From NCBI GenBank assembly GCA_030650425.1, contig JAUSED010000005.1:14932-78931 (forward strand): a stretch of 64,000 nt of DNA. Reading direction: 5' to 3'. The stretch's first letter is position 1, and each line of letters opens with the position of its first letter. Origin of the DNA: Candidatus Omnitrophota bacterium (GTDB lineage: Bacteria > Omnitrophota > Gorgyraeia > Gygaellales > Profunditerraquicolaceae). Shown here piece by piece: positions 12,001-64,000 of this stretch. A program made the position numbers and the translations under genes. The notes under the pieces are model-generated. The model was not told the origin of the DNA. It saw only the letters and a program-made list of their open reading frames with translations, and made no database searches.

Positions 12001-15000
12001 AATTTACGTAAGGCTGCCGCAGCTAAAAATAAGAATTTCGAAGCATTATTTGGTGAAGTGTCATTATGGGCCCGCTTCTTGCTGCGCGATAAATCAGTTG
12101 AGGCCGCAGAATTATTAACCAAGGAGATTGTTGGCAGTAAAACAAAGCAAAGTTCTGCTCAGGTAGCGCCAAAGGATCATACAGAAGAAGGTAAACAGCC
12201 AATAGCAAAAGAAGCAGTAAGAAAAGAGCCCTATATTGTGAAACCGGGGGACAATCTATCCACGATTGCCCAAAAGACATTAGGTAAGGCAGGATTATGG
12301 CCCAAGATTTATGAGCTAAATAAAAAGGTAATCGGGAGTAATCCGAATTTAATCTTTGCCGGACAGAAATTTTCCCTGCCTGAGCAAGAGAAAGCGCTGA
12401 AGAAAGAAGATGCGCGTCCTGTTGTAGGCGGCGCTAAAGAAACTAACGCCAGCCGCGCTCCTCAGGCGCCGGATAACCAAGAGATTAACTCCCTCATTAA
12501 GGAAACCAATAGTTTAGCCTCTCAAGTTAAGAATAAAGAGCCTGATCTTAAGTCTGAGCAACTTTTAAAGAAATATAAGTTAATTGATAATGCGCTTGAG
12601 AAGTTAAGCGATAGAATCCAGAATCTTAAAACCCCTATTCCTGATCCTAAAATTAATATTAGTTTACCGGATTGGTTGGAGCAAGGCATAATTTTTCGGA
12701 CTAAGCTTAACCGGTTACGTCAGAAGGTTATTGAAATAGGGGATAAGCTTGCTGAGATGACTAACCTGATTAAGAACGAGCAGGATGCCAAGAGACAAAA
12801 ATTCATCCAAGAAGCGGCAACTGAAGCAACCTATCTGGAGAATCTGAAGAAATTCCGCAGCCTGTTGCCAGTATCTTATGCCCAAGACCCGGCTGAATAT
12901 GGCAAATCTTATATTTATGACTTAGCGGTGTATATTGATGTGTTAAGTTACTCTGATACCAAAAAAGCAGAAGAGCTCCTGCGTTTATTCACTTTCTTCT
13001 TCGGCAAAGGCAAAGACGGCTTTAGCAATGCTTATAATCTTTCTAATTTAAGCGGCTTCCAGCAGAAAACTACCGGGCCGCTGGCGCACTTGATTATCGC
13101 GATTAGTAATTATGAGGCTAGGAAGCTAGCAGGACAGGAGTCGTATTTAGAGGTAGCCGAGAATATCGCGGATTATTTGTTAAAAGAATTGTATGCCGGC
13201 GATAAAGGAGTCTTTAGGTTTACCAGCGACAAGAAAGACCCGGATAATTATAACTTAGTTTCTACCGAGCATCAGATTTCCGCTTACGCGGCCTTTAACT
13301 GGCTAGTTACGCGGGTCCAAGATGCGGCTAAAAAGGCAAAATACTCGCAAGTAGAATCCGGCTTAATCAAATACTTAGTTGACAGCTATGATAAGGCAGG
13401 TTATTTCTATGCCGGTTATAAATTAGATAAGCATGAATTTGACCAACGGCCGGCTGCGGATTTAGGGCCTTGGGCAATGCTGGCTTTGGGAGAAAAGATT
13501 ACAGCCATTGAGCCTACGCCGAAGAAGATCGTTGAATATGCCAAAGCTAACCTGTTGGTCAAGGTAGATTATTATTCAGCCCGCGAGCAAAAAACTGAAA
13601 TAGAATTGATGCCCTTCGGTAAAGAGTCCAAGGCAGATAAAGTAGGAAGCTTTGAGTGGAGCGCCTTCTGGATTATGGCTGCGCGTATGGCTGGGGATGA
13701 GGATTTGGCAGGCAGGCTGCAAAGTTCACTGCAAAAGGTTAGCGTAAACGGTATTCTGCCTTATGCCTCCAAAGAGGGCCACCCAACAGGATTTAATTGG
13801 AACACGGCTAAGGGTCCGGCTTTGATCTCTACTTCGTGGAATATTTTGGCTGGCGAGGATATCAACATCTTCAATCCGCAGGCGCCGGCTAAAACCATCG
13901 CTGTGGAAAAATTAGAGCAAATTGCCAAGGTTTTTGCCTTCTCCGAAGAAAAATACCGCAAGTTAGGCATTGGTTATAATGTGGATGAAATTCAGCGTTC
14001 CCTTGAAGGAATACAACGCACTGTAAAGCAAATGCAGTTGATGCTTTCTACCACCAAGGACCGGAATACCCAGAGATTGCTGGAGTTTTACTTCAATTTC
14101 TTTACCGCGGATCCGCTCTTTAATACTTTAGGCGCCTTCACTTTTGGTAAGATGGGCGCAGGCATAAGTTTTGGCGGTAAATACGGCTCGCTAATGACTA
14201 TGGCTAACACTATTTACGGCTTAACCAGAAGCCTGAACTTCATTGGTATTGCCACCGCGGTAACTACAGCCGCGGATATCTATTCTATGCCGGGGATGGA
14301 AAAATTGGAAGGCAAGCATGGCGGTATCCTGAAAAGAAAAGGGAATGTTTTTGACGCGGGAGTGCTGGAAGTTGCTCGGCCAGAAGCAGAGCTTAATGCC
14401 ACCTATGATCCTAAAACCGGAGATATTTTGGTTAAAGAAAGCAAAGAGCATTTACTGCAGATTAAGCTGCCGCACAACGTAGCCTCTGATTGGATTAATA
14501 AAATTGTAGAGTATTTTAAAACTAAAATTAAAGGCGACGAAGACAATCAGATTAGCCCGCTGAAAAAATATGACGCGGTAGTCTTTTTCTCCGATATCCA
14601 CAAGGCAGCATATAAAGAAGCGTTCTTTGGCGAAGATAATAATGATAAGTATGTCTATTTTGCCAAGAGGCAGGGTAGATACCAATATATTATCAAGGTT
14701 AATGTGGATGACACCAAAGAGATTAAGGTAATTTCGCAGGCGCTGATGTTTACTGATGAAACCCGGCAGTTCCTGGTTGATGCAAAGTTATGGATGGATG
14801 ACGGAGAGTTGCTTGTTTTGCCTTCAGCCTTACGCTTAAGCTATGCCAAAGATTTTGTCAGGGCAGTAGCCGGGGCTATGAATGCTCAAGAATTTAATGC
14901 CGGAGCGGAAATCGACCCTCTAACCGGCAAGGTATATTTTTATAACGATATCAGCCAGATCAGCGCGATTGTGCGCAACCAGAATGCGGTTCCGTTTAAT

Positions 15001-51000: not shown

Positions 51001-54000
51001 ATTACGGGTGGGAAAGGAAGGGAATTATTTCGTTCTGATTTGGAAGACAGGTCGGATTGCGTGCACATGATAAAGCTGTATTCACGGGATCACTTGGCTG
51101 TTCAGGGTAGCTGGAAGCCAGTAGAATATAAAAATAATTATTGGTATTTAAATACCCAAGAGTTCGTTAATCCTATTGATGCTAAAGAATTAAGCGAAGA
51201 AGATGGCCTATCGATTATCAAGGACACAGTTAAGGCCTATTTTATCACTTGCGGAATTGATGAGAAAGGATGGAGGAAAAATAAGTTACCTTATATATTC
51301 TCGTTCCCCATAGACGTAAAGCTCGCAAATGTAGGTTTTATTATAAAAGAGGGTAGAAAGATAATTAAAATATTTGATATTGATTTGGCTAGAGATTCCA
51401 CTCCTTTTAGGATTTGGCTTGTTTTAGGCACATTAATGATACGAGCTTGGAGTAATAATAGCGCAGAGGCGATATTTAAAGGGATAGAAGAAGCAATGGG
51501 CAAGAAGAGTGCTAACGAGTTTATAAATATAGCTTATAACGAATATACGGATTTACTTTCTGAACCAAACTTTACAATTAAAGAAAAAGAAGAGGGAGAC
51601 ATTGAGATGTCCGAAACAGTACCTGATTCTTACGGTAAGCATACCCGTATAACGAAGGTATCTAAGCAATTGATAAAATGGTTTGTTGAGCGATCAAGCT
51701 CGCCGGTGGGCAAATTTAGTATTATTAAAGGCATGGATGTAGATAGTAGATTAGTGGATGGAGTAACCAATATTAATTACGCTATAGGTAATCAAAGATA
51801 TGCTTGTTGGGTGGATGATAATGCAGCCATTATTAGTAGAGCTAGCGTTTACACTAATCATACCGTGATTGCCTATCTAGGAAATATAATAATAGGTTAT
51901 ACGGTGTTCGGGCCGCTATTTCATTATCCTATTTATGTATATCAAATGGCAGTTATGCCGAGGTATCAAAGTAGAGGTATAGGAGCAGGGCTATTTAAAA
52001 AATTAGTAGATTTTTCACAAGCCCAGAATATTCATAAGATAACCTGCCATGTGAGTATTAATAATCCCTCTGGAGAATTTTACTTTAAATTACCTTATAG
52101 GCTCAAAGAAATCGCTGATATTGAATACGTTCCAGATGGTATAGCTCCCGATAGTAGTCAGATTCTTAGAGTTGAATATAGGATAGAAGCTTCAGGCAAA
52201 AATGCTTTAAAATCCAGCTCTCCGGCGGAGAACTACCGAATTCACAATAGAAGTAGCCAGGAGCCAAAAGTATCTTTACTGTTTTCAGCAGTTACTACTA
52301 TTGATAAATTTACGCGGAATCACGTGTTTAGTATTATCGTCCTTGGTGTGTTTGCTTATGTATTTCTTAAACTGGGATTGTATCCGGATAGGATCATCAG
52401 CGGTAAAGCAAGCGGATATTTTGATATCTGCCTGGAAGCTGTCAAGGCCACAGTTCTTAATAAAGAATTTCTATGGAAAACGGGCCTTGTTTATCTTGTT
52501 TTCGGCACGCTAACGGATTATTTAGCAAAGCGCGCAAACAGAGAGACGTATTCATGGAAAGCGTTTAAAGGGGTTATAAAATATTCTATTCTAAAGGCCG
52601 TTTTTGTCTTTGTGTTCTTTATTGCCATTGCCGGGTTGGATAAATTTTGGCGCGTAATCTTCTCAGGAATTTTGCTTGGTTTTATCCTCTTGAATATCCG
52701 CAAATGGATGTTCTATTCTGAATATCAGGAAAAAAAATCAGAGGCATTGAAAAAGCGGACATCCGAGATGTATTGGCTGACGCGGATATGGATTTTTGGC
52801 CAGAATTTTATTGTGCAGGTTTTGTTTCCCATAGAGCGTAGGGCGTTAGCCAATGCCATAATTTCACAGCTGCATTCTTTGTACAATAGCTATGGATTGC
52901 ATGAACAGGGACCGTCTCTTATTAAAAGAGAGCTTTTGGTAACTAAGATAGAAAGCTCGCTATTTATAAGATGGCTAAGGTATGCCCAGAAGGCCTTAAA
53001 TGATTTCATTGTAGTTAAGTTTTCGCGCGCGAAGGTTAAATTTATTAATAAGTTCTTTGGCAGGGCTTGGGATAATTCTGCCGCACTCATAGTCTTTGGT
53101 TCTATTGCGCCATTTGTTATAGCGATTGATGCGCTGCGTAAAAATAGTTTTCTGAAGAATAAAGCAGCTGGGATCTTACAAGATCAACGGGGGAAATCTG
53201 TCGATCTTGATTCTGGCCCCTCCAGCTCGCCGGTGGAGTTAGAAAAAGCCAATAAGCAGTTTATACTTGAACAATTAAAAGAAGCTTTCTTGGGAGAATA
53301 CAATCGTTCCTTTGAAGGAACGTATGGAGTGGAATTGATAAATTCTGTTTTTGATATTGTTACACTTTTACAGGATGAAAATGTTATCCACAAAAAACAA
53401 ACAGCCCATAACCTACTCTTCACCAAAACAGAGCAAGGTTTATCAAAAGTCTATATCTTTCCCAGAAAATTCCAGACCCCTAGTGAACTTGGTACTGGTG
53501 TCGCTTTTTTTGAATTAGGCGGTGAGTTGATTGCTTTGATCAAGGAACATAAAGACATCCCAGCAGATAGTAAAATAACCAAAGCCTACGAGGATATTAC
53601 TAGCGTAGAAGAACTTATTCCAGAACTCGAAAATACCAGCTTGCCTGAACAGGAATTAAAAAATTTGAAAGAAAAGGTCGTTAAGAGGTTTATTGCCAGC
53701 TCACCGGTGAAGAAGATAATAAAGATTAACTTACTTCAGCAGCCCCTTGAAATCTTCTATGGAGATGGCTGCTCCTTTAAGAATAGCACGCAGGGTTCCG
53801 GGTTTGATAGAGCTAGAACCATGGAGAGGAACAACAACTCGGCGGGTCAAGTCTTGAGAATGGCCGGGATGGGCAAATTATCTTCTTTCATAGTTTCTAT
53901 ATATAATGAAACTGCCTCTTTTGCGTTACGTATAGCTTCCTCCAGAGTTTCTCCTTGCGTAGCGCAACCTGTCAAGCTGGGTATAGTTACAGAGAATCCT

Positions 54001-57000
54001 CCAGAAGGCTCTTTTTCAAGTATTATTTTAAATCTGCGTAGCATTTTTAACCTCCTTCTTGATAACATAGAGTATAACCTCTTCGGTAAAGTAAGTCAAG
54101 CCAAAACTGCGGATGCATTATTTAGCGTCCAATTTGCCCATAGCTCGCCAGTGGAGCCAAAAGGAACAAAATCGGCCTTACCTTATCTAATAAATATAAT
54201 AACTTTTGAGAGTAAACTTGGGGCAATGGTGATTGTTGCTTCAAGCAGCATTTTAGTAAAGCCGGATAGCAAGGCAAGTTTGTATCAAAAGAGTATTAGA
54301 GCAAGCTCTTCGCTTAAAGGTATCCACACAGGGCTTTCTCCCCCGGAAAGAATTTATTATACCGCCTCATTCAATCTCTCTATCGCAGATATTTCTTCCA
54401 AAACTTCCTCTTCGCCAATAGGTTCCATAAACGGTCTACAATATCTTGTGTCCCCGGAATTAACCCTTATGATTTTAACAGGCCTTAAATTTATTGTAGG
54501 GATATTGGGTATAGTAGGATTGATTTTGCTCTTTAAGATAATAAAACGAAGATATAAGCGTATAGAAAAATACAGAATTGAACATTTCTTTGCCCGAATA
54601 GATAAGGGAGATATCCGGGGAAAGGATGATTATGATAAATTGATAAAAATGATCAATAAAGAGATTTATATCTCGCCATCCCTTTTTCCATCCCCTTTCT
54701 CTTATAAAACATATTTCCACGAGGCAGCGCTGCAGAGATTTGGCAAATTCATAGGCTTTTATTTCTCCGAGATGCTTGGTTCTCTTACGTCTTTGAAAGG
54801 AAGGGGAGTCTCAGAGCAGAGGCATATTTTTAGAGGATACGCCTTCTTACCCATAAATGTTTTATATCGTGTTTTATCTAGTGATGAATATAAGGGTATG
54901 CAGAATATAGCTTCTAAGCATATGGAAACTTTGCTGGGAAAAATAACGGATATAGAGCCCTTAAAGATGCTGGTTAATTGTTACGATGGCCCAATTTGCG
55001 GTATGGTCGGTTTTCGTCTTGGCAAAATAGCAGATGTATCACTTATTCCTCTTATGGCAACTTGGTACAATAGCTGGGGAAATGAGCGTATTGCTGCTGC
55101 TGAAGCCTTAGGGTCTTTGATAGGCAAGATTATAAGCGATATGAATATTGATTATTTAGAGATGGTTTTGATGGACCCTCGACTTGGAGACTTTCATGAG
55201 CCTGTTTTTGGCGCTCTCTGTCTCGCGCTTGGGGAGAAACGCAGAGAGAAACATATTCAAGGAGAAAAACTGGAAAGGTTTGCCAAGCTTTTGGCAGGCT
55301 TTATCAAGGGTAAGAAAGGTGAGGTTACAACCCGTGCCGCAGGCTGTTTAATCCAATTAGGAGAGCCTGCAATGATGATATATCTTCAAGACTTGACAGG
55401 AACGAAAACTGGTATGCCTGAACAACTCCCTATACTGCCTGATATAATCAAGTGGGCTACCGAGAATCTTCAAGATATATCTATATTAGGAAAGCTTTTG
55501 TCTGAAGAGAGATATACCGGGGATAATGAGGATTTAAGAATAACAATTATTAAAAGCTTAGCTAAGATAGCTTCCCCTGAGGCTTTTGGGACTATGATTG
55601 AGTTTTTGGATAGAAATATAGGTCCCGGAGGTATCAATAAATGGGAAGTCGCGGAGGATATGTTTTTATCGCTAGTCCGCCGGAAGAAGGCAGAGGATAT
55701 GGTTTTATCGTTAGCCCTTAAGAATGTAAAATTATTGCCCTTTGCATTAGTTTTGCTAGGAGCAACAGCTGTTCGTAGTATTATTGTTTGGCGAAAGGTG
55801 ATGAAAAACCTTGGTGAAGGTTTAATAGATAGCATAGTGAAGCAATATGAAGAAGCGCCTAAAAATGAGCGCTTAAAAGTTGAAATTGTCAGGACCTTGG
55901 GAGAGAATAAGGTTAGGGTTAAAGAAGCGATTGATGTGCTTGAGCGAGCTCTTGAGGAGAAGTTTCCTTCCTTCCTTTCTTTACATGCCGCCTTGGCGCT
56001 TTTAGAAATCGATCCCTGCCGCTCCTGCCACTACAAGATGAAGTTAGAAAAACGTAATTTTTTAGATTCAATTTACTGGCCACGAAGAATTCTTACGGCC
56101 AAAAAAGGCAAATATGTTTTACAAATTGTAATAGATGCTAGAGGTGTTTATCGAATATTTAGGCCTGGCCAAAGACCAAAGAATTTTAGAAAGATACCCC
56201 TGAAATTAAAAAGCATATTTGATAGGGGTAGAGGGCTTATAGAACCAGCGATTGCCCCTGAGAAAAAATCAAGAATTGACGAATTCCTGGAGTTGGCAGC
56301 GCAATTAAACAAGAAAATTTACTCCAGCTCGCCGGTGGAGGCAAAAGCGGCTGGAAATCAGGGAGCCAACTGGCGGCGGGCCAATTTTTCACCCGAGACC
56401 TCACTGCTCTTTGCTATCTTTCCACTCCAAGAGCAAAAGAGGGCTCTTAAAAGATACAGGGCCTTAATGCGGGATGCGGCCAAGATTATCCCAGAGTATA
56501 ACAGGCCAGAAAAAAATGTAGACAGTTTATCCATCTCATCGCCTGTCAATGAGTTAGAAAACAAATCCGCAACGATAGGCCGCTCCAGCTCGCCGGCGGA
56601 AGAAAATAATTTGATAGAAAGGTTATTTCCGGTAGGCGTCTTCTCGAGTATCTACTCCATCGATGACAATGCTCCCGCTGACAAGATAGAAACAGATACG
56701 ATATTTCCCAACTCTAAATCTATGAGTGGCGGGAGGCAAGTTAACCAGAGGCTTTGCGAAATAAAGTGGTTTACCGGAAAAAATGTAGAGGTCGATCTTT
56801 TCTATGACGCGTTTCTGCAGTGGAAGAGAAAGCTTTTTAAATTCCCGTTCGCCGGCAGGAGTGAACTCAACCTTGGTAAGCATAGCAGGATTCAGGACAT
56901 CCCTAATTTATGCTTAATTTTATCAAAGGAGACCAATCCTAGCGCTTGGGCCTCCTCAATTCCTCTCTTTAATCTTGAAGCTAGTTTAGGATTAATCGGC

Positions 57001-60000
57001 AGGCGCTCTTCAATCCCATCAATAAGCCAGCCACCAGGATTAGAGAAGACGTATTCTTTAGCGGGAGCAGACTTCTCAAATCTGTCGTCAAACGCGCAGA
57101 GTAGATCCCACAGGGAGCCTGTATCAAAGATAAAATATTTCGGGGCTCCATTTTTATCCACAACGGCCGCGGCCTTGAAGTCCTTAAGTTCCGATTTCTT
57201 CAATTTTTTAGGAATAGCCGCGAATTTCTCAATGGGTTCTATTTTGACAGACTCTTTTGATGACTTAACTAATGATTTTGATCTCATTTCTTCATCCTCC
57301 CTTATTTATAAACAGTATAACACATTCTTTTTCGATCTGTCAAGCCGGATATCGTTAACGAATAATAGGGGTGGTTCTATTTTAAGTAATAAAAATCGCT
57401 CCAGCTCGCCGGCGAAAGAGATAAGATATGATGCGGATGAGGCACAGGATGTATCTCTTGGCCTAAAGCCAATAAAAGCTGTGGTTGAAGCTGCGCGGAG
57501 CCTCATTAATGGATTAGATAAAAGGACTATAGGATTAAGTAAGGTTAAGGGAGAGTCTGTTATCGTGCAGTTTAAAAATAAAACAAAGCAGGAGAAAGTT
57601 TGGCTTAACTTTGGCACAAAATTAAGAGATTTTGTTTCGCTGATGGAGGTAAGATTACTTTCAGATCCAGATATTAAGGTAAAAGTCTTGATCAATATGT
57701 TTAGCAAAGACAGAAAATTCTTGCTAATTTTTTATACTAATGACAAGGTTTATTTCTATGATACTTATGGAGAGATAGGGTCTTTAATTAAATTAGATAA
57801 GAAGGCACAAATATTGGGTCTTGAAAAGTTATTAAAAAATAAAGCGGTAAAAAGTTTTATTGATTACGTCCTCATTGGATATATTTCTCAACCAAAGTTT
57901 ATCAATGAAATTATTAAAATTTATCCTGCCCGTCCCTATAAGGCTAGGGGGGGTACAGAGCTTCGTTTTGATAAGACGGGCTATGAACTTCCTGATAGCA
58001 AAGAGACAGAGTTGGGAAGGATTCTGGAAAAAGAAATGGTCATCGTAACAGATAAAATAGCGGAGGGTAAAATATTTACTATTTTACTTGAAAAAGATTC
58101 GCTTAATAAAGCCGCTCCACACTATCTTTTATTTTTATCCCTATGCGATAGGGTACAACTTTATAACGAAGCCGGTTTTATTGTTGAATATATCAAAGAC
58201 GGGAAAAATCACGGCTACAGCGATAACCTATTCATCAACACCTTTCTTCTTAGTATCGCTTTTAAGCAAGAGTCAGCATGGAAGACTTTAGATTTAGGCC
58301 GCCAAGCGACGCACGCGATTGTTATTGGCGGGGCAGATAGAGGCTCTTTAACAATTCCAACTACAGGTATAACTTTAGAAGCATTGAATATTCGTAAAGA
58401 CGGCGGGGCGTGGATACCTGTTAAGCGGATAAGAAAAGGCGATATCATCTCGGGAGTTTGCGGTTTAGGGGGAGGCCAGTATTATGTTGACGGTATAGGA
58501 GCGCCTTTAGGAGACAAAAAATTCCCGGCTATTCTTTTAGAAGGAAAATTAAATCTTCCAAGTGTAATCCGCTGGCTATCGCAAGATGGCTCCAAAGAAA
58601 ACATCCCTGTTTCAGAATTTTTGAAAGAACTTTTTGGCAGCCGAGCAGAGAACGGCCAGAGTAAAAAGATTATGTATAGATTAGAAAAATCTAAATCCAA
58701 AAGGCCGGTTTATGATAGAAAAACAGCTCAATGGTTGGAAAAAGTTGTTTGGATCATCGTTGATTATGGCAGTGAAGAAGAATCAGGAATATATACATTG
58801 AATAAAGTCGTTGATAAGTTGGTAGAGATGAAAGGAAAGTTTAATCCCCTCTCTGTTTATATCCTTAAAGATTTACGCAGGGCTATTATTGAGCATCTGC
58901 CTTACGCAGCTTTAGCCCAACAGGAGGCAATTGAACGCATTCTTTCATTAGCTTTGCCGCAAGTGAGCCGAGAATTAGCCGAAAATCCACAAATGCAAAA
59001 ATGGATAGGAACGGCTATCCGCGGTTTATGTCAGGCAATAAAAATTAACCTAATCTCAGCTTTAAGACTACATGCTTTATTGGCAATCGAATATTTAATG
59101 GTTACAGAAGATGTCAAGCAAGAAATAAATGGGTTAATAAAATCCCGCGTTCTTAATGAAAACAAGGGAAATAAACTTCGAATTATAGATACGGCTTTGA
59201 TTTTAACAGTAAGGCTAAATTCAAGCCCGATTCTAGCCCCGAGAAGCACTTTAGTAAAGCCGGATAATAAAGATTATTTACTTCATCTAGAAAGTATTGA
59301 GGCAAGCTCTTCGTTTAAAGATATCCACACAGGGCCTTCTCCTCCGGGGATAAATTATTATCTCGCCCCATCCAATTTCTCCGCCATAAATATTTGTTTT
59401 ATAACTTCTAGTTCACCAATGGAAGAGAAGGCAGATAATTCTGAAAATAAGTATCGTGCCCCCGGAATTACGCGCTCTAGCTCACCTTTAAAACGAAACA
59501 ATCGCAGGCAAGATAGAACATACATACCATCATCTTTAGAAAGATACGGATATAATTTGGGCCAGTATTTCGATAAGTATTATGCTAAATACCTGTCCGG
59601 GGGGATTATTGCTAAACTTGAGGAAAACGGTTATTTCGAAACCCTTTTTGGTACGTATGTAAACACGCCTACGCCTAATTATATAGAACTGGTTAGTGAT
59701 ACAGAGCTGCAAAGAAAGATTGGCCTGCTCTACCTGAGCGGTTTGGGATTCCTGATTGAAGATGGGGTAAGTTTTGCCTGGACAGAGGGGAATTTTATAC
59801 ATCCGATATCAGCAAGGCCTCTTAATATAAAATACGCAGAAAGCGAAGATTTATTCCTTAGAGTAGAGCTTATATTGCAGAATATGCCTTTAGCTCAGCA
59901 GGATGAGTTTATAAAGATGCACTTGGCGCCGATCTTGTGTAAAACCCCGGAATTCTTAGATAAATTGATTACCTTAATTTTAAATATGCTCGATATAGAA

Positions 60001-63000
60001 GATAAAGAAGGATTGATTAAAGATTTAGAAAATTCCTATATTGTTGTTAAGGAGAGGAATTTACCTAAACCTTCGATGTATATTTTGCGGGAATATCTTT
60101 CTACCTTAGTCTTGCATGAAATTGGAGAATGCATCTTTTTTGTCTTACCCGACACTCTTAAGGAAGAGTGGAGGACTTTAGTTACCAGGGAAGTCCTTCC
60201 TTATCTTGGCATCATATATCTTAGGGGTTATGGTAAAGCGATTATACAAAGAGCGCAGGAAATATCTGCACAAGGTGCATTAAGGCTTGGCAGATTGGAA
60301 GAGGAGTTCTTTGCCGATGCCTTTACAGTAATCTTTGACAGGAGGAAGAATATTTTTGCAGAATTTGGAGAAGGGATCCGTGACGAATGGGAAGAGTTCA
60401 TGATTAAGAAAGTAAAGCCATACTTAATCAAAAAGCACAACTCTGGCAAGAATAGCTGGCAAGTTGAAAGCGGAGAGATCATTAGAATCTATAGAAATTC
60501 AGCCATAATTGAACCGAATGATGTAGAAGAGTCATCGAGGGAATCTTCCAGCTCACCGGCGAAGCAATCCTCTTCTCCAATCGAAGGCTATGCCGTTGTG
60601 ACGGATGGTAAAACTGATTCTGCCGCCGAAGAGGGCAATCCGGGAGCACATTGCTCAACAGCTTTAATCTCCAGCTCAGCGATGGGTATAAGCCGCAGAA
60701 GCTTTATTAAAAATAGCTCTTTGGTTTTATTGGGTCCGTCGAGATTAGCCTCTCTCTTGCGTTATTTAAGCGCGTTATCTTTGGCAGGCTGTGGCGGAGG
60801 CGGCGGCACGGAAAACCAGGCCCCTGCGCCTCTTCCGGCCCAGACTGAACTGGAGTGGATAAAGAGCAGGGTTAACCCCTCAACATTCCTTGCGGAAACT
60901 TACCAAGGCCTTTCATCAACAGACCTCTCCTTTAAAAAGTCCTTCATTTACGACCAAGGTTTGGCTATCAGGGCCTTAGTGGAATTTGGCGGCCCGGAAG
61001 AGTTTGCGCTGGCTGAAAAGATGATTGATGCAAACGGAAACGGAAACGTAGACAGTTTATCCAGCCCATTGTCTGCCATAGACTTAGAAAACAAATCCAA
61101 AATGACAAGCCGCTCCAGCTCGCCGGTGGAGAAACAAGGTGAAAGATTAGAACTGATCCTAACTTATATAGGCGATTATCTTTTACGCAGCAGCTCAAGA
61201 AATTCATTCGGAGATAGAATATCAAAGCCTTTGGCTTTGAGTACGAGAATGTCTTTGTCTAAGCTCACTAAGGGGACTTTTGATTCTGCAGCTAAGGACA
61301 GGATAAAATCATCTTCGCAATCTCTACAGATATCTAACTCGAGGCGGGTTTTGAGCTTATGGCTCTTGTCGTCAATTAACGCCACAAGTTCCTTTGCTTC
61401 ATTAGCGGGAATAAGCCTTTTAACCTTTGGTTTACTTAAAGTATCATTGAGCTCTTTTAGTAATTTCTCAGATACAATTAGCGTAAATTCCTCATTGATA
61501 AATGCGTTTAAGATAGGCCTGGTCAATGAGCTATTCATCAGCGCGCTTATCCAGATATTCGTATCAATGACAACCTTAAGCATATTAATTAGCTTTTCTT
61601 ACTTTCTTTACAATGCGTACAATTTCGTCGTTAGAAAGAACCCTGCGGTTCTTAATCCGCTTGTCGATTCTAGAGATGAGATTCTTAAAGCGCAATTGCC
61701 AAGTCTCCAAGTTCAACCTTCGGGCAATGATCAGTTTTTCTTCCAATGGAAGTTCTTCTATAAGATTCTCAACCTGCTTAGTATTAAGTTCCAAAGTTAC
61801 TTTAGACATGTAAAACACCTCCTATCATTAATAAACTACTCGTCAACAAATTATAACCCAATGCCGCCTTTGCGTCAAGTTTATAATCTTCAGAGGATTG
61901 TGAATAAAGAGGAGAATAAAGGTGACGGTTCTATTTATTTCCAGTATTTCCAGCGAGAAAATACAGACAGTTTACCTATCCCATCGTTTACCAAGGAGTT
62001 AAGAAATAAATCCGTAATGACAGGCCGCTCCAGTTCGCCTGCGGAATTGAGTTATAGATGGAGTTTATTTATAAGGATTAGGGAAGGGGCAGATTATTTA
62101 CTCAATATTTTAAGACAACTTTCAGCAGTTAGTACTTTAAATGGTAGGTCAGCAGAACGACGGGATAAAAAATGCCTATTTTCTGTTACCAATGCATCTG
62201 CGCCTGTATATTCTGAAAACGCGCCAATAAGCGCGTCTGCGGGCTTAAGCCCTAAAGTTTCATATTTTGTGCCTAGTTCAAATGGCACCTCAAAGTCTTC
62301 ATCAATTTTAGTCCAAGCATTGATGAGAAGTATAAATTCCTTAAAGGCTTCAGGCGTTAGATTATCGCGCACCTCTTCAATGATTAAGCGCAGGATTCGC
62401 ACGGTGATATCTTCTGGACGTTCTGCTATTTTTTCAATCAGTTTTTCAGAAGGCGGATATCTGACTGCGCCTAAGGCAAAGATGTATTCATTACTATCGA
62501 GAATGAGCCGCAAATTTTGCCTCCCAAATCTTTTCACGAGTTTTACGAATTTTCTCAATTATTTCTTGCTTGCTAAGACCCCGGCACGGGGAGCTGACTT
62601 TGGACATAAGTTGTCGAATCTTGTCGATGCGCTTTTTAACTTCTTGAATATTTTTTCTCATAATTCTTCACCTCTAAGTAAGGTTAACATACCTAAAAAC
62701 TTTAGTCAAGTGGTTATTACTAATGACTACTTCAGTCCTCTTAGCCGTGGTGCTTCGCCGATTAAGCAGGGTTATCGTAGCTTTGCGGTGGAAGCAGCAC
62801 CTTCTATAAAGAAAGATTCTGCGCGCAAAACGCCGTTTAGGCCGAGTTCAAGTAGCCCTCTTGGTTCTCTTGTTACAACTCTTGGCGGATATCATTATAT
62901 CGGGTTGCGCCAAAGAATAGGACTGGATGACCATTTTGCCAATGGGCCGCCTGCGGTAGATACCTCTAGCCTATCAAGGATTTTTTCCATAACATCTTCT

Positions 63001-64000
63001 CCTATAATAGATTACATAAAGCGTCTACCTATTCTACCTATTGTGTCCCTTTCGGGAGCGTCCCCTATTGCTACCCACTCAGTTTCTCTTTTTATTGAGA
63101 TTATCCGTAAAGGCGCTGGCGCCTCTAGCCCGGTAGTTTTAGAGGCTAAGAAAAACTATAGAGATTTGATGCATGATCTGAGGGGAAATTTTATTGTTGT
63201 TAGGAGTTGTATACTTAAAGGCCAGAATGAGCTGCCTCAATATTTTGACAAAACTAATGCTGATTATACAGTAATTCCGGAGCTGGAAGCTTTCTTAAAA
63301 GCGGCAGATGTATTTATTCAGATGATGGACAAAGATTCGCGTTTCATACAAGAAGAAATCAATCAGGGATTACCCAGGGAAGGGCTGCCAAGAGAGGAAA
63401 CAGAAGAAACAATAAGCAAGAACCTGGGCCCATTTTATCAAGCGCTAAAAGGCCTTGAGAAATTAAAAGATAATTTTACAGAGCGGGTAAATTTATATAT
63501 GAACCTATGTGTTAGCGCCAGTAATGCGGCGCTTGTGACAATGAACAAATTATTATTCTGGACAGGGTATTCGATGTGGCCATGTGAAGACTTGAATAAA
63601 TTTATTAAAGAGATAGTGGAGCCTTTTAGGGCGCAGCACTTTGGTTATCTTCGAGAAAGCGCATTCACTAAAGCAGAGCCGCAGAAATTACTGGACGCGG
63701 GAATAGCAAGGAAAGCGGATGGGCGAATACATTGGAGCGTCTCTAGCGAGCAGGAATTATATCAGAAATTAGCCGAACTAGAGAATTCAAACATTGAATT
63801 TGTGGTTAAACAATGGAAGGCCTGGCGCAAGATCGAATTTACGATCAAAATCTCGAAGTTCTTAAAGGCCGGAGAAGTTTCTGTCTATACAGATGTTATA
63901 AGGGATACTTTGACAGACCTTGCTAACAATGCCATAAAGTACAGCGGGGCAAACAAAATAGAGATTAAGGTTTTCCATAAAAAAGGCGAGGCGCATTTTA
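1..64000 (+). CDS. giant multidomain ORF in frame +1, partial at both ends (no in-frame stop anywhere in the window; at least 21,333 codons)
   Basis: ORF track has no +1 ORF with both ends in the window; only eight short +2 ORFs and none in +3. Codon-by-codon read of 53761-54180 and 60481-64000 plus about 15 scattered lines found no stop. The translation is protein-like with many recognisable domain motifs. Confidence 0.85.
300..800 (+). other. domain: degenerate GGDEF-like nucleotide-cyclase fold (GGDEI)
   Basis: ...YIGFGDMVGVRVMNKAHS...VKYGGRAIRIGGDEIGIILP at 541-600 matches the DxDxFK...RYGGDEF pattern with F->I. Confidence 0.45.
2497..2895 (+). other. domain: CheY-like response-regulator receiver (REC)
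   Basis: KILLVDDESSLRELTRMF...YDLILTDLDMPRMGGLDLA...TPVIMTSGRG...LSKPYMNKEL. The acidic pocket DD, the phospho-acceptor D in TDLDMP, and the conserved T and K are all present. Confidence 0.85.
3730..4750 (+). other. domain: protein-kinase-like fold (kinase-like 1)
   Basis: Catalytic-loop-like ITDPKPENIIIT at 4351-4386, followed by IFFIDLDY (DFG-like) at 4411-4434. Confidence 0.4.
4822..4875 (+). other. internal Met plus twin-arginine (Tat) signal-like segment
   Basis: In-frame ATG at 4822, then MAKNIPLTRRGFIKLTAFLVGLGVL. TRRGFIK matches S/T-R-R-x-F-L-K and is followed by an h-region. It sits directly after an SSP linker (TTSSP). Confidence 0.5.
4900..6230 (+). other. domain: alpha/alpha-toroid-like (six-hairpin glycosidase-like?) family, copy 1
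   Basis: YRYYAAYSYDMAIYAIVLKML ... DGGFRMGPRGQ ... ESAIAFLDLLYSS ... DKEAGVFFRGSR. It is paralogous to 12870-13900 and to the fragment at 60880-61040. Confidence 0.3.
6240..8270 (+). other. domain: family-2 glycosyltransferase, processive synthase-like, with polytopic membrane region and a C-terminal beta-rich module
   Basis: QIPTRNEP...QVIDNSD (6520-6650), ILDVDS (6820-6840), GHNGIWRKSALDKIGGW...SEDTD (7030-7110), QKRTRKF (QxxRW-like). TM helices at about 7300-7800. Confidence 0.7.
9480..11800 (+). other. polytopic membrane domain (many predicted TM helices)
   Basis: Long hydrophobic runs, e.g. LLAVSLASLFIAGAALYLGYLL, ITPFIYIGVLFISAFI, GIPILVALIPLLKALLLIL, WLFSGPVALALVT. The function is not recognisable. 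Confidence 0.5.
12229..12378 (+). other. domain: LysM peptidoglycan-binding
   Basis: YIVKPGDNLSTIAQKTLGKAGLWPKIYELNKKVIGSNPNLIFAGQKFSLP. Confidence 0.75.
12870..13900 (+). other. domain: alpha/alpha-toroid-like family, copy 2
   Basis: YGKSYIYDLAVYIDVLSY...DKGVFRFTSDKKD...TEHQISAYAAFNWLV parallels 5040-5600. Confidence 0.3.
15650..16900 (+). other. coiled-coil-rich region
   Basis: Q/E/K/L-rich heptad-like stretch (NQLRRQMVAFNKLAEAINRL...QELSTVNAKISEAEQLLAKAQA...). Confidence 0.4.
26440..27060 (+). other. domain: HAD-superfamily phosphatase-like (sugar-phosphatase type)
   Basis: Motif I VFIFDIDGTVS at 26452-26484 (DxDGT), with downstream small hydrophobic/S-T motif II candidates. Confidence 0.5.
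29497..29682. repeat. R2 repeat, copy A (about 185 bp; 157-bp core at 29524-29680)
   Basis: 96% identical to 50482-50663. Frame +1 encodes SSSPIQTGALVGTRFEQQVARLMGVGSLSETLRGIDIRTKEELANGAIGQINSFLAAKGLS. Confidence 0.9.
29730..30650 (+). other. domain: sugar-phosphate nucleotidyltransferase-like (NDP-sugar pyrophosphorylase fold)
   Basis: VRPIVMAAGNATRFSRF (29728-29780; the G-x-G-T-R signature) and a later KGHGDAF. Confidence 0.5.
31600..35110 (+). other. module P1: expanded CofD/YvcK (UPF0052)-like domain plus a conserved C-terminal region
   Basis: CFGGGSGTLAIL at 31831, VHVLQSSIDDGGSTFK at 31930, GITFGPGSFFTSTMPHFLVKGLAKAL at 33330-33410. Paralogous to P2. Confidence 0.6.
35158..36640 (+). 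other. domain: glycogen/starch synthase-like (GlgA, GT5)
   Basis: MHIVMVSAEAYP from ATG 35158; PDVIHVHDWPISLIPLL (35560-35620; compare GlgA DVVHAHDWH); GILPGVDYEAFDPVED; C-terminal MPHSAVPGSFVPLYSLRYGTVPVVNAIG (compare GlgA SRFEPCGL..LY.LRYGT.P.V). Confidence 0.75.
37850..38860 (+). other. domain: ROK-family sugar kinase-like (copy 1)
   Basis: VLVGLDMGGSYIKLV at 37855 and VYLINDGDADAF at 38245. Confidence 0.6.
38880..42380 (+). other. module P2: paralog of P1 (expanded CofD/YvcK-like)
   Basis: CFGGGSGMLAIL at 39110, VHVLQTSIDDGGATFK at 39190, GITFGPGSFFTSLMSYFLAKGLAKAL at 40585. Collinear with P1 and about 55% identical at the amino-acid level by eye. Confidence 0.6.
42800..43790 (+). other. 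domain: ROK-family sugar kinase-like (copy 2)
   Basis: LWFGLDIGGSDLKTVVV at 42820 and VYVINDGDAAA at 43170. Confidence 0.65.
43850..45250 (+). other. domain: phosphoglucomutase/phosphomannomutase (alpha-D-phosphohexomutase)
   Basis: GGIMITASHNPYHYNGFK at 44130-44185 (the active-site Ser loop), GIAFDGDADRL at 44560-44590 (the metal loop), GGEQSGHFFF at 44810. Confidence 0.85.
46200..46850 (+). other. domain: protein-kinase/APH-like phosphotransferase fold (kinase-like 2)
   Basis: RLFIGDPTPFNIVLL ... KIIDLDGI at 46648-46740. Confidence 0.4.
46880..47760 (+). other. domain: canonical-length CofD/YvcK (UPF0052)-like
   Basis: ITSLGGGSGPQRL at 46890, ITVFDNAGSTGIMRR...PAVGDLRN at 46960-47040, ADIIIIGPGSITSYIPVLLTRGIAGAI at 47610-47690. 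Motif spacing matches YvcK. Confidence 0.7.
48180..48540 (+). other. domain: HATPase_c (RsbW/SpoIIAB anti-sigma-factor kinase-like)
   Basis: LREAIDNSIAHAKGKVWIIWGV...EVKDEGDK...DGKGIGLKIIKN. Confidence 0.5.
48640..48960. repeat. R3 repeat, copy 1 (about 300 nt)
   Basis: Shares ..gaggcaatggt.attg.tgcttcaagc...ttagtaaagcc.., ..ccaataggttccataaacg.tctacaata.. and the terminal gtgttcccggaattgcc with copies 2 and 3. Confidence 0.6.
49700..50400 (+). other. domain: nucleotidyltransferase head (poly(A) polymerase / CCA-adding enzyme type)
   Basis: IILMGGGVRDIFFDSEITDADVSI at 49757-49830 (the GGxVRD...DxD signature). Confidence 0.5.
50482..50663. repeat. R2 repeat, copy B (core 50506-50662)
   Basis: 6 mismatches over the 157-bp core, 4 of them synonymous in frame +1. 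Confidence 0.9.
50880..51690 (+). other. domain: kinase-like 3 (APH/PKL-like)
   Basis: ISIGEGGYSTVFKVTINDKYAFVLKI ... KIIKIFDIDLARD. Weak match. Confidence 0.3.
51720..52200 (+). other. domain: GNAT N-acetyltransferase
   Basis: IYVYQMAVMPRYQSRGIGAGLFKKLVDFSQ at 51940-52020 (the motif A R/Q-x-x-G-x-G/A). Confidence 0.65.
52230..53220 (+). other. membrane segment (4-6 TM helices), function unknown
   Basis: VFSIIVLGVFAYVFL, GLVYLVFGTL, AVFVFVFFIAIAGL, FSGILLGFILL, ALIVFGSIAPFVIAI. Confidence 0.4.
53731..53877 (-). pseudogene. hicA-like toxin remnant (C-terminal half only; no start, overlaps the hicB 3' end)
   Basis: The minus frame gives FAHPGHSQDLTRRVVVPLHGSSSIKPGTLRAILKGAAISIEDFKGLLK, which matches the HicA C-terminus (..hp...vtvPvH...GTLRsILKqAgls.eef). 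No N-terminal helix or start codon. In-frame TAA at 53878-53880. Confidence 0.45.
53847..54044 (-). CDS. hicB: HicB-family antitoxin (UPF0150)
   Basis: MLRRFKIILEKEPSGGFSVTIPSLTGCATQGETLEEAIRNAKEAVSLYIETMKEDNLPIPAILKT. AGGAGG at 54051-54056 lies 6 nt before ATG 54044. The ORF-track start at 54068 lies at or upstream of the predicted transcription start. Confidence 0.8.
   Translation of the reverse strand: MLRRFKIILEKEPSGGFSVTIPSLTGCATQGETLEEAIRNAKEAVSLYIETMKEDNLPIPAILKT
54071..54099 (-). promoter_or_regulatory. sigma70-type promoter for hicB: TTGACT, 17 nt, TATACT
   Basis: Minus-strand read: cTTGACTtactttaccgaagaggtTATACTctatgttatcaagaAGGAGGttaaaaATG. -35 at 54094-54099 and -10 at 54071-54076. 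Confidence 0.7.
54175..54468. repeat. R3 repeat, copy 2
   Basis: Same blocks as copy 1; ends gtgtccccggaattaaccctt directly before the in-frame ATG at 54469. Confidence 0.6.
54469..56320 (+). other. TM-anchored HEAT/ARM-repeat segment
   Basis: In-frame ATG at 54469, then MILTGLKFIVGILGIVGLILLF (TM). Repeats with AAEALGSLIG, TTRAAGCLIQLGEPA, IKSLAKIASPEA, IVRTLGENK, LHAALALLEIDP. Confidence 0.45.
56505..56601. repeat. R1 repeat, copy a (about 90 nt; ends in the 19-nt SSP-site)
   Basis: aatgtagacagtttatcc...ttagaaaacaaatcc...ggccgctccagctcgccggcggaag. Lies immediately 3' of the relE stop on the minus strand. Confidence 0.75.
56623..56883 (-). CDS. RelE/ParE-family toxin
   Basis: MLTKVEFTPAGEREFKKLSLPLQKRVIEKIDLYIFSGKPLYFAKPLVNLPPATHRFRVGKYRICFYLVSGSIVIDGVDTREDAYRK. 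Only 8 nt downstream of the upstream ORF's stop (translational coupling). Confidence 0.7.
   Translation of the reverse strand: MLTKVEFTPAGEREFKKLSLPLQKRVIEKIDLYIFSGKPLYFAKPLVNLPPATHRFRVGKYRICFYLVSGSIVIDGVDTREDAYRK
56892..57287 (-). CDS. putative antitoxin (unclassified family) of the RelE/ParE module
   Basis: 131-aa ORF immediately 5' of the toxin. AGGGAGG at 57296-57302 lies 8 nt before ATG 57287. Consensus promoter upstream. Confidence 0.45.
   Translation of the reverse strand: MRSKSLVKSSKESVKIEPIEKFAAIPKKLKKSELKDFKAAAVVDKNGAPKYFIFDTGSLWDLLCAFDDRFEKSAPAKEYVFSNPGGWLIDGIEERLPINPKLASRLKRGIEEAQALGLVSFDKIKHKLGMS
57314..57343 (-). promoter_or_regulatory. sigma70-type promoter for the antitoxin-RelE operon: TTGACA, 18 nt, TATACT
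   Basis: Minus-strand read: gcTTGACAgatcgaaaaagaatgtgtTATACTgtttataaataAGGGAGGatgaagaaATG. -35 at 57338-57343 and -10 at 57314-57319. Confidence 0.65.
59215..59490. repeat. R3 repeat, copy 3 (more diverged)
   Basis: ...ttagtaaagccggataataaag...gaggcaagctcttcgtttaaagatatccacacagggccttctcctccgg...gtgcccccggaattacgcgc. Confidence 0.5.
60685..61040 (+). other. Tat-signal plus lipobox lipoprotein-like segment, truncated by the R1/PIN cassette
   Basis: In-frame ATG at 60685: MGISRRSFIKNSSLVLLGPSRLASLLRYLSALSLAGCGGGGG. SRRSFIK is a twin-arginine motif and LAGC is a lipobox. Then FIYDQGLAIRALVEFGG (alpha/alpha-toroid-family N-terminus) runs into R1. Confidence 0.55.
61040..61131. repeat. R1 repeat, copy b
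   Basis: aacgtagacagtttatccagccc...ttagaaaacaaatccaaaatgacaagccgctccagctcgccggtggag. Lies immediately 3' of the PIN toxin 1 stop. Confidence 0.75.
61176..61583 (-). CDS. PIN-domain toxin (VapC/COG1569-like)
   Basis: MLKVVIDTNIWISAL...CRDCEDDFILSLAAESKVPLVSLDKDI. The conserved D in beta-1, the DD and the LVS.DKD signatures are present. Confidence 0.8.
   Translation of the reverse strand: MLKVVIDTNIWISALMNSSLTRPILNAFINEEFTLIVSEKLLKELNDTLSKPKVKRLIPANEAKELVALIDDKSHKLKTRLELDICRDCEDDFILSLAAESKVPLVSLDKDILVLKAKGFDILSPNEFLELLRKR
61585..61809 (-). CDS. putative antitoxin of PIN module 1
   Basis: MSKVTLELNTKQVENLIEEL... AGGAGGTG at 61816-61823 lies 6 nt upstream of ATG 61809. The ORF track extends to a GTG at 61818. 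Its stop is 1 nt from the toxin start. Confidence 0.55.
   Translation of the reverse strand: MSKVTLELNTKQVENLIEELPLEEKLIIARRLNLETWQLRFKNLISRIDKRIKNRRVLSNDEIVRIVKKVRKAN
61850..61878 (-). promoter_or_regulatory. sigma70-type promoter for PIN module 1: TTGACG, 17 nt, TATAAT
   Basis: Minus-strand read: cTTGACGcaaaggcggcattgggtTATAATttgttgacgagtagtttattaatgatAGGAGGtgttttacATG. -35 at 61873-61878 and -10 at 61850-61855. Confidence 0.7.
61955..62046. repeat. R1 repeat, copy c
   Basis: aatacagacagtttacctatccc...ttaagaaataaatccgtaatgacaggccgctccagttcgcctgcggaa. Lies immediately 3' of the PIN toxin 2 stop. Confidence 0.7.
62094..62558 (-). CDS. PIN-domain toxin 2
   Basis: ...LRLILDSNEYIFALGA...GADALVTENRHFL. 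The likelier start is TTG 62513-62511, preceded by GGGAGG plus 6 nt; that gives MRLILDSN... Confidence 0.75.
   Translation of the reverse strand: MRKFVKLVKRFGRQNLRLILDSNEYIFALGAVRYPPSEKLIEKIAERPEDITVRILRLIIEEVRDNLTPEAFKEFILLINAWTKIDEDFEVPFELGTKYETLGLKPADALIGAFSEYTGADALVTENRHFLSRRSADLPFKVLTAESCLKILSK
62494..62661 (-). CDS. putative small antitoxin of PIN module 2 (55 aa)
   Basis: MRKNIQEVKKRIDKIRQLMSKVSSPCRGLSKQEIIEKIRKTREKIWEAKFAAHSR. GAGGTGA lies 6 nt before ATG 62661. It overlaps the toxin start. Confidence 0.5.
   Translation of the reverse strand: MRKNIQEVKKRIDKIRQLMSKVSSPCRGLSKQEIIEKIRKTREKIWEAKFAAHSR
62681..62709 (-). promoter_or_regulatory. candidate promoter for PIN module 2: TTGACT, 17 nt, TAACCT
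   Basis: Minus-strand read: caCTTGACTaaagtttttaggtatgtTAACCTtacttagAGGTGAagaattATG. -35 at 62704-62709 and a weak -10 at 62681-62686. Confidence 0.45.
63130..64000 (+). other. domain: sensor histidine kinase core (HisKA H-box plus HATPase_c N-box), partial at the window end
   Basis: YRDLMHDLRGNF at 63160-63195 (H-box) and DTLTDLANNAIKYSGANKIEIKV at 63910-63980 (N-box). Confidence 0.6.

Follow-up and report, generated by a model that had tools for sequence, protein, structure and literature searches.

We analysed a 64,000-nucleotide (nt) stretch of a contig from Candidatus Omnitrophota (JAUSED010000005.1), called the window here, and in particular two pairs of PIN-domain toxin and antitoxin genes that lie near its right end on the minus strand. 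A first-pass annotation of the same DNA had described these as two tandem operons inserted antisense into a plus-strand frame that stays open. The frame is indeed open there, and the openness in fact spans all 64,000 nt. On translation, frame 1 of the plus strand has no stop codon in 21,333 codons (1–64000), and the other five frames have 752–2196 stops (G+C 40.4 %). This open reading frame (ORF) continues past both ends of the window, so its length is at least 21,333 codons. As judged from the sequence, the two PIN cassettes are probably self-contained type II toxin–antitoxin (TA) operons placed antisense in a giant multi-module ORF, and would be mobile addiction modules that are tolerated, possibly even useful, inside giant genes.

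The giant ORF codes for many enzyme and signalling modules. Pfam scans covered 1–30000 and 34000–63999 of the frame, plus the large minus-strand ORFs. More than 15 families of the kinds listed for the multi-enzyme class of giant proteins were identified in the frame, including GGDEF, Response_reg, GT2, CBM30, LysM, Glyco_transf_5, GT1, ROK, PGM_PMM I–IV, CofD, GNAT, and HEAT. In-frame domains are present on both sides of the cassettes, and the giant protein has 48 strongly hydrophobic windows of 19 amino acids. Giant ‘multi-enzyme metabolic cluster’ proteins have been described for Omnitrophota (bioRxiv 10.64898/2026.06.07.730766; 10.1101/2023.11.21.568195). The window resembles them in its length of more than 10,000 codons (the class starts at ≥10,000), in its starch synthase, GT1, PGM/PMM, ROK, response regulator, GNAT, and HEAT modules, and in its many hydrophobic segments. 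The host of the cassettes is a giant multi-enzyme ORF of the Omnitrophota type and not a lipoprotein gene. The window contains no marker gene; the nearest homologues of its TA proteins are named Candidatus Omnitrophica or Omnitrophota, with one (on locus L013) labelled Planctomycetales.

Results

The toxin of cassette 1, PIN1, is a protein of 135 amino acids encoded at 61176–61583 on the minus strand. It matches the Pfam family PIN_3 (PF13470; E 6.8e-18, 66 bits, cut-off 27) and TIGR00305 (E 3.9e-25, 88.4 bits, cut-off 29.15). The acidic residues D7, E44, D88, D91, D109, and D111 are invariant in an alignment of 16 sequences, which includes distant free-standing homologues. The exact protein was not found in a collection of 15 billion predicted proteins. 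Antitoxin 1 (74 amino acids; 61585–61809, minus strand) starts with an ATG at 61809 and is preceded by the ribosome-binding site AGGAGGTG at 61823–61816. Start codon and ribosome-binding site are conserved in four loci. The antitoxin ORF, which stops 1 nt short of the PIN1 ATG, is conserved in L008, L013, L004, and L001. There is a weak match to VapB15 (E 2.3e-5), which is under the cut-off. The promoter TTGACG-17-TATAAT (61850–61878, minus strand; 11/12 matches) is the best promoter-like site of the 7.5-kb region that was scanned, and its elements TTGAC and TGTTATAnT are kept in four other loci, L013, L008, and L004 among them.

We calculated the ratio of nonsynonymous to synonymous differences per site (pN/pS) against a 78 % identical homologue on L008. 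The ratio is 0.25 in the PIN1 frame and 0.33 in the antitoxin 1 frame, with synonymous sites near saturation (pS 0.73, pN 0.19). In the giant frame it is 1.18 over antitoxin 1 and 0.48 over PIN1, the lower value arising because wobble positions are shared there. The giant frame over the TA genes is open but is not conserved as a protein, and the overlap does not qualify as dual coding. On these sequence data, PIN1 and antitoxin 1 appear to be a genuine VapBC-like operon under purifying selection, with toxicity and neutralization as predicted functions. When the giant frame is read across PIN1 (61393–61612, plus strand), three 19-amino-acid windows have a Kyte–Doolittle hydropathy of at least 1.6.

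The toxin of cassette 2, PIN2, is a VapC-type PIN protein of 139 amino acids (62094–62513, minus strand) with a TTG start at 62513, as in its homologues. Its match to PF01850 (E 4e-4, 21.3 bits) lies below the cut-off of 23.6 bits, and an hhalign comparison with the PIN_3 alignment gave E 5e-4 with a probability of 31 %. PIN2 belongs to a family of 591 proteins, of which some are named VapC and some carry PF01850. D6, E47, D93, and E111 are invariant in 24 sequences. The AlphaFold2 model has a predicted local distance difference test (pLDDT) score of 84.6, and the top matches of the model in a Foldseek search of the PDB were nearly all VapC or other PIN-domain proteins (TM 0.60–0.66, probability 1.0). 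We accept PIN2 despite its Pfam score because of the size of the family, the invariant acidic residues, and the VapC-like model. Antitoxin 2 (55 amino acids; 62494–62661, minus strand) overlaps PIN2 by 20 nt and has no match in Pfam or NCBIfam. A gene of 54–55 amino acids with the same 20-nt overlap is present in L066 and L067, and that of L069 codes for 64 amino acids with a 17-nt overlap. Upstream are the ribosome-binding site AGAGGTGA (62675–62668, minus strand) and a weak promoter-like site read from the sequence, TTGACT-17-TAACCT with an upstream TG (62681–62709, minus strand), which was below the thresholds of the promoter scan. Its −10 element is poor; CTTGAC and AGAGGTGA, which are conserved in the family, recur in six of seven other loci. 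PIN2 and antitoxin 2 thus seem to form a genuine VapBC-like operon as well, again with toxicity and neutralization as predicted functions.

The two tandem operons of the first-pass annotation hold up, PIN1 through profile matches far above the cut-offs and PIN2 through its family and model, and the catalytic acidic residues have not been lost in either toxin. Its statement that each carries a promoter of its own is correct for cassette 1, and applies in a weaker form to cassette 2.

In the free-standing PIN2-family cassette of L067, the same hairpin-forming repeat, GTAGCGGCGGGATTACTATCCCGC, occurs on both sides (9651–9680 and 10480–10510). This cassette adjoins genes for a reverse transcriptase and bAvd, which from their names appear to be a diversity-generating retroelement, and a Y1 transposase.

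At least four antisense TA cassettes, including the two PIN cassettes, lie within the final 10 kb of the window. The third codes for a RelE/ParE-family toxin of 86 amino acids (56623–56883, minus strand). The toxin itself has no NCBIfam or Pfam match and only a weak match in the PDB (3g5o_B, E 0.01). Its identity is settled by its homologues: there are 53, several of which are named RelE/ParE toxin of Candidatus Omnitrophota, and some carry PF05016. The putative antitoxin of this cassette (131 amino acids; 56892–57287, minus strand) has no family match; the same gene pair, again with an 8-nt gap, is present in a free-standing homologue, L150. A promoter-like site, TTGACA-18-TATACT with a TG (57314–57343, minus strand; 11/12 matches), lies upstream. 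The fourth cassette is of the HicAB type. It contains a HicB-like antitoxin of 73 amino acids (53847–54068, minus strand; Pfam HicB_lk_antitox, E 1.6e-13) and a HicA toxin fragment of 39 amino acids (53731–53850, minus strand; Pfam HicA_toxin, E 1.8e-6). The fragment has only the C-terminal half (profile positions 32–56 of 58) and may be inactivated.

A codon-score screen of the window found no antisense coding beyond 53.7–54.1, 56.6–57.4, and 61.1–62.7 kb. Six more large minus-strand ORFs (39904, 44232, 50400, 55470, 56892, and 57306) had no Pfam match, the six TA proteins had no match among the PADLOC models, and the Rfam scan of the window at gathering thresholds gave no match.

The four cassettes and their spacers make up about 936 codons of the giant frame, and there is no giant-frame stop in any of them. 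Ordinary genes of related genomes have 3.2–4.8 antisense stops per 100 codons. About 30 stops would therefore be expected over this length, and chance is excluded as the cause. An operon with its own stop codons can sit in an ORF without ending it only if it is antisense, since the stop codons of the nested genes are then read as TTA, CTA, and TCA from the other strand. No PIN gene was found in the sense orientation within a long ORF at the 87 loci checked.

Two alignments of codons are found. The codons of antitoxin 1, antitoxin 2, and RelE are in register with the giant frame, and genes in this register need only avoid TTA, CTA, and TCA. None of the three genes has any of these codons; TTA is the commonest leucine codon of the giant ORF (35 % of leucine codons). 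On synonymous resampling, the probability of having no antisense stop is 0.001 for antitoxin 1 and 0.004 for RelE. In PIN1, PIN2, and the RelE antitoxin, the wobble position lies on the wobble position, which forbids only NNY-TAY and NNT-CAN. The PIN1 clade is without any tyrosine, and three of the four tyrosines in PIN2 are preceded by glutamate or lysine. PIN_3 TA genes outside the lineage have stops in all three antisense frames.

The boundaries of the cassettes carry a short motif. The giant protein contains 47 copies of the tripeptide SSP where 3.7 are expected (13-fold), usually as (S)SSP(V/A/L/I)(E); the sites include 2470, 35101, 43819, 46849, 51697, 53224, and 56326. None of the Pfam envelopes contains an SSP (P = 0.004), and 5 of 12 domains have one in the 160 nt upstream of their start (P = 0.007), often 10–20 amino acids ahead of the domain. 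Other giant frames are also enriched in SSP, encoded with different serine codons (23 against 1.4 expected in L001 and 26 against 1.4 in L077). From this distribution in the sequences, SSP is a module-junction motif at the protein level, and it is a candidate for the module or cleavage boundary of giant proteins. In the window the junction reads SSSP(V/A)E, with the DNA core CTCCAGCTCGCCGGTGGAG. The motif is genome-specific, and near-identical DNA cores are concentrated at 48–62 kb. The cassettes are always between modules, and most of them are bracketed by SSSP(V/A)E; the right boundary of the PIN2 cassette is a weak SSP at 62665. The antisense cassettes of the window, L013, L016, L001, and L077 are bracketed by SSP; those of L092 and L145, whose frames are poor in SSP, are not. 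A scan for the core located copies on both sides of the HicAB unit, IASSPVK on the left (53694–53712, plus strand; four mismatches to CTCCAGCTCGCCGGTGGAG, in the frame shared with all other copies) and AHSSPVE on the right (54138–54156, plus strand), and RSSSPAK on the right of the RelE/ParE cassette (57399–57417, plus strand). The core-to-core lengths of 915 and 816 nt are both multiples of three, and the frame of the flanking modules is shared by the four cassettes and all spacers.

A longer repeat, R1, consists of the junction core plus about 65 nt. Pattern searches found exactly three copies in the window. Copy a (56520–56600) ends in the core at 56583–56601 (RSSSPAE), copy b (61050–61130) in an exact core at 61113–61131 (RSSSPVE), and copy c (61965–62045) in the core at 62028–62046 (RSSSPAE). 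They follow the RelE/ParE, PIN_3, and VapC-PIN toxins at 22–48 nt, and no R1 accompanies the HicAB unit. The copies are 71–81 % identical. For copies b and c, whose similarity had been estimated by eye, the identity is 78 % over 81 nt, and both end in the SSP-coding core. The differences are spread evenly over the codon positions with pN/pS of 0.7–1.7, and R1 is for this reason a nucleotide-level element; a conserved peptide linker is ruled out on the same grounds. On the TA strand, R1a (at 56583–56569) and R1b (at 61124–61104) each read as a terminator-like hairpin with a U run after it, a short way past the toxin stop codon. Two other roles for the junction were considered and rejected. A module start methionine is not kept directly after SSP (8 of 47 sites against 8.7 at random positions). 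The SSSP core does not serve as a ribosome-binding site for internal starts, since no start codon is suitably spaced at the cores examined by eye.

Only two Tat-like (twin-arginine) motifs are present in the 21,333 amino acids, TRRGFIK (4828–4900) and SRRSFIK (60685–60810), and both come directly after a junction. A methionine precedes each of them, and a lipobox (LAGC) accompanies the second. The second belongs to a module at 60685–61059 (plus strand), which follows a degenerate core at 60669. The Tat motif and lipobox were correctly described by the first-pass annotation, as was the change to a serine- and leucine-rich translation where R1b starts. Internal Tat signals thousands of codons from the N-terminus are odd unless the protein is cut there.

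The cassettes are very probably insertions, as had been proposed, because the same cassettes occur in unrelated flanks and free-standing, often with direct repeats. At 14 of 14 embedded loci compared with the window, homology within the giant frame is confined to the cassette. Direct repeats with the core CTCCAGCTCGCCGG(T/C)GGAG flank cassettes in the window, L013, and L008; the direct repeats are about 50 nt long in L004 and 24 nt in L092. L003 and L004 share 1.7 kb at 99.7 % identity, after which all similarity between them is lost inside the core AGCGGGCTGC (GSSPLG; L003:2197–2326 and L004:3201–3330). Beyond this point they carry different TA cassettes. The argument that had been made from an interrupted lipoprotein does not hold. 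The Tat/lipobox module (125 amino acids) is essentially without homologues, with one weak match among 1.84 billion representatives, so a truncation is not demonstrable, and the module ends at a junction motif like other modules.

The arrangement recurs in other contigs. Each of the eight contigs of the PIN1 clade has one antisense frame that is open over essentially its full length (up to 4,716 codons). In the genome collection, the four Omnitrophota-type loci all share this feature, including one at 39 % identity with a frame of 5,422 codons, and none of 36 loci from other phyla does, the longest open stretch there being 826 codons. Among the metagenome loci of the PIN2 family, 9 of 80 are embedded, and four of these are open over the full 20-kb locus (about 6,800 codons). 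The cassette of L066 adjoins a called gene of 17,055 amino acids, and the frame continues through the cassette. Further nested genes on L092 (2149–2694 and 14155–14529) and L145 (7663–7920 and 14065–15511) are BrnT with CopG/BrnA, a PIN protein (E 9e-20), ParE, and two DUF433/DUF5615 pairs. The nesting is not specific to one TA family. The pattern is repeated on independent assemblies from JGI, ENA, NCBI, and Logan, and the PIN2 and RelE families are also found free-standing in ordinary gene neighbourhoods. The 826-codon stretch is on a Nitrospirae contig (L028:8473–10950), antisense to a distant PIN_3 match, and may be a further case of nesting or simply a real gene of that strand.

Discussion

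The features of the two PIN cassettes suggest how such units could be accommodated. Each would be transcribed from its own promoter through a ribosome-binding site, an antitoxin gene, and a toxin gene, and would end at the terminator-like R1. Recombination at the junction repeats may be how addiction modules of this kind enter. Ribosomes that translate the giant mRNA would read through the cassettes and make a filler rich in serine, leucine, and phenylalanine that is bounded by junction motifs. There is indirect but strong evidence in the sequence that ribosomes traverse the whole giant frame, since it appears to be kept open by selection through the nested operons. Promoter-bearing TA cassettes are thought to prevent cassette loss in chromosomal integrons (PMC13108822). 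By analogy, the TA pairs here might penalize loss of the surrounding DNA and so stabilize a giant gene that its repeated junctions make prone to deletion.

Several observations weigh against this interpretation. Given their residue sequences, PIN1 and PIN2 would be open with P of about 0.43–0.55. Free-standing relatives often have the antisense frame open over the operon too (44 of 80 PIN2-family loci, and also L067, L069, and L150); we therefore rejected the notion that only embedded copies are open antisense. Because of these two points, adaptation of the toxins to the nested state cannot be separated from pre-adaptation or filtering. Both observations would be accounted for if cassettes frequently shuttled between the embedded and the free-standing state. 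The open stretch of free-standing copies ends approximately at the operon boundaries; that of embedded copies takes in the promoters and spacers as well. The embedded cassettes of L145, and in part those of L080, have no recognizable flanking repeats, and the contrast between L003 and L004 could result from paralogy or assembly. No empty site was found, a metagenome contig scan with the upstream flank (60100–61047) gave no relatives, and no recombinase was identified. The hairpins of R1 are not significantly stable in RNA and DNA folds.

A broader model, which we put forward tentatively and consider possible rather than likely, is that giant ORFs of this lineage are in-frame arrays of gene-sized units in either orientation. 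The genome-specific junction (in the window SSSP(V/A)E, CTCCAGCTCGCCGGTGGAG) would be both a frame-keeping recombination breakpoint and a boundary for processing of the polyprotein, and the role of the stop-free antisense TA operons would be to keep the array intact. The enrichment of SSP outside domains, the shared cores, the core-flanked cassettes, the divergence of L003 and L004, and the Tat signals after junctions are all compatible with it.

Other explanations have to be weighed against the view that the cassettes are mobile addiction modules. They might instead serve the giant gene, either by throttling or cutting the giant transcript through convergent transcription or mRNA pairing, or by supplying the hydrophobic filler as a membrane-spanning linker. 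The TA promoters do face the direction in which the giant gene is transcribed, the giant-frame reading of PIN1 has its three hydrophobic windows, and the cassettes are always between modules. The pN/pS of 1.18 over antitoxin 1 points to no constraint on the protein, however, and cassettes that are free-standing in ordinary contexts argue for a primary function independent of the giant gene. Unrelated TA families nested in the same way indicate a property of TA modules rather than a specific regulator, and we consider a role of this kind unlikely. The region might also be an integron-like array in which R1 is an attC-type site and an integrase has captured the TA units as cassettes. One genome-specific repeat after three unrelated TA operons is reminiscent of sedentary chromosomal integrons with their homogeneous attC sites. 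The cassettes are in tandem with their own promoters and flanked by direct repeats, and TA cassettes are typical of such integrons. As single-stranded DNA, on the other hand, the three copies of R1 on both strands fold with z scores of −1.8 to +0.3 against shuffled sequences. The ends of R1 are not complementary, and inverse cores of the RYYYAAC/GTTRRRY type were not seen by eye. No integrase domain was seen when 60 kb of the giant frame and the large minus-strand ORFs were scanned with Pfam, in a window that holds only sequence of the giant ORF. The attC-like 3′ end suggested by the first-pass annotation is not supported by these results. The repeated core codes in frame for a motif that is found between sense modules too, the HicAB cassette does without R1, and the array is one continuous ORF, unlike any integron. 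We regard this origin as very improbable.

Equally little speaks for two or more large genes that flank an island of TA genes, with the giant frame not translated across the cassettes and its openness a by-product of the TA families. Such a by-product would fit the free-standing PIN2 and RelE family members, which also lack antisense stops, and the values of P for PIN1 and PIN2. It does not fit the embedded promoters, spacers, and R1 copies, which are free of stops as well, when the openness of free-standing copies ends close to the operon boundaries. Four cassettes and their spacers share the flanking frame, antitoxin 1 and RelE need codon choice to be open (P = 0.001 and 0.004), and the pattern is seen on assemblies from four independent sources. 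This makes the explanation highly improbable. That the antisense ORFs are decaying relics or chance ORFs is scarcely credible. The truncation of HicA and the poor −10 element of cassette 2 are in its favour, but the strong family matches, the intact catalytic residues, the excess of pS (0.73) over pN (0.19), the conserved promoter and ribosome-binding site, and families of tens to hundreds of proteins oppose it. It is largely refuted for PIN1, PIN2, and RelE, and the HicA fragment is still a candidate.

The mobile addiction modules proposed here share features with several known systems. As in VapBC operons, a small antitoxin gene lies just upstream of or overlaps the gene for a PIN toxin of about 135 amino acids with conserved acidic residues, and the operon has its own promoter. 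They differ in being antisense inside another gene whose frame they keep stop-free, and in having antitoxins under every curated cut-off. As with the TA cassettes of the Vibrio superintegron, promoter-bearing TA units are scattered along a long array in which a genome-specific repeat separates gene-sized units. What sets them apart from sedentary integrons is that neither an attC-like hairpin nor an integrase is in view, that a single frame is open, and that the repeat has a coding core, SSSP(V/A)E. Selfish DNA tolerated in an ORF through preservation of the frame is reminiscent of the Rickettsia palindromic elements, which Ogata and co-workers in 2000 are said to have found inserted in frame in genes and translated as an extra peptide. 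Those elements are reportedly non-coding palindromes of about 100–150 bp, whereas the units here are 0.45–0.9 kb and carry genes on the other strand. A study of embedded antisense overlapping genes in E. coli describes coding genes wholly inside a gene on the other strand (bioRxiv 10.1101/2020.11.18.388249). The present cases are unlike these in that entire operons are nested, each from a well-known family and with a promoter of its own; one host gene has several of them, and the host frame is merely open.

The giant genes of Omnitrophota are a recent puzzle with regard to whether they are translated whole, where their products are cut, and how they are maintained. West-Roberts et al. noted that cleavage-point information for giant proteins is lacking. 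Opposite-strand genes, a junction motif, and candidate cleavage points are features of the window, and none of these is mentioned in either of the papers on giant proteins (10.64898/2026.06.07.730766; 10.1101/2023.11.21.568195). Our literature search found no paper that combines Omnitrophota, antisense, and toxin–antitoxin. The arrangement thus combines known kinds of elements, TA modules and antisense nested genes, in a newly recognized setting for which we found no report. The opposite strand of giant genes is predicted to carry complete operons that have promoters of their own. Gene callers recover only one of the two: calling the giant ORF drops the nested genes, and on short contigs the reverse happens. 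Part of the ‘unannotated’ or ‘transmembrane’ content of giant proteins may be antisense filler. For the module and cleavage boundaries that are still missing, the SSSP junction offers a concrete candidate, and the locus is an unusually clean natural case of two-strand compatibility at the level of both codons and residues.

Other features of the window

A region of 20 kb at 9337–29503 (plus strand) is without an SSP motif, and its sole Pfam match is LysM (12232–12381). Hydrophobic segments are densely clustered within it at 9.5–11.7, 22–23.4, and 25.4–25.8 kb. The region may code for a very large membrane module.

To the right of cassette 2, a low-complexity stretch of the giant frame (62665–63132, plus strand) contains four SSP and two ASP motifs at short spacing in 156 codons. 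It has no minus-strand ORF, and the plus-strand codon score is low up to about 63100. The motifs in this cluster may be scars of junctions or of lost cassettes.

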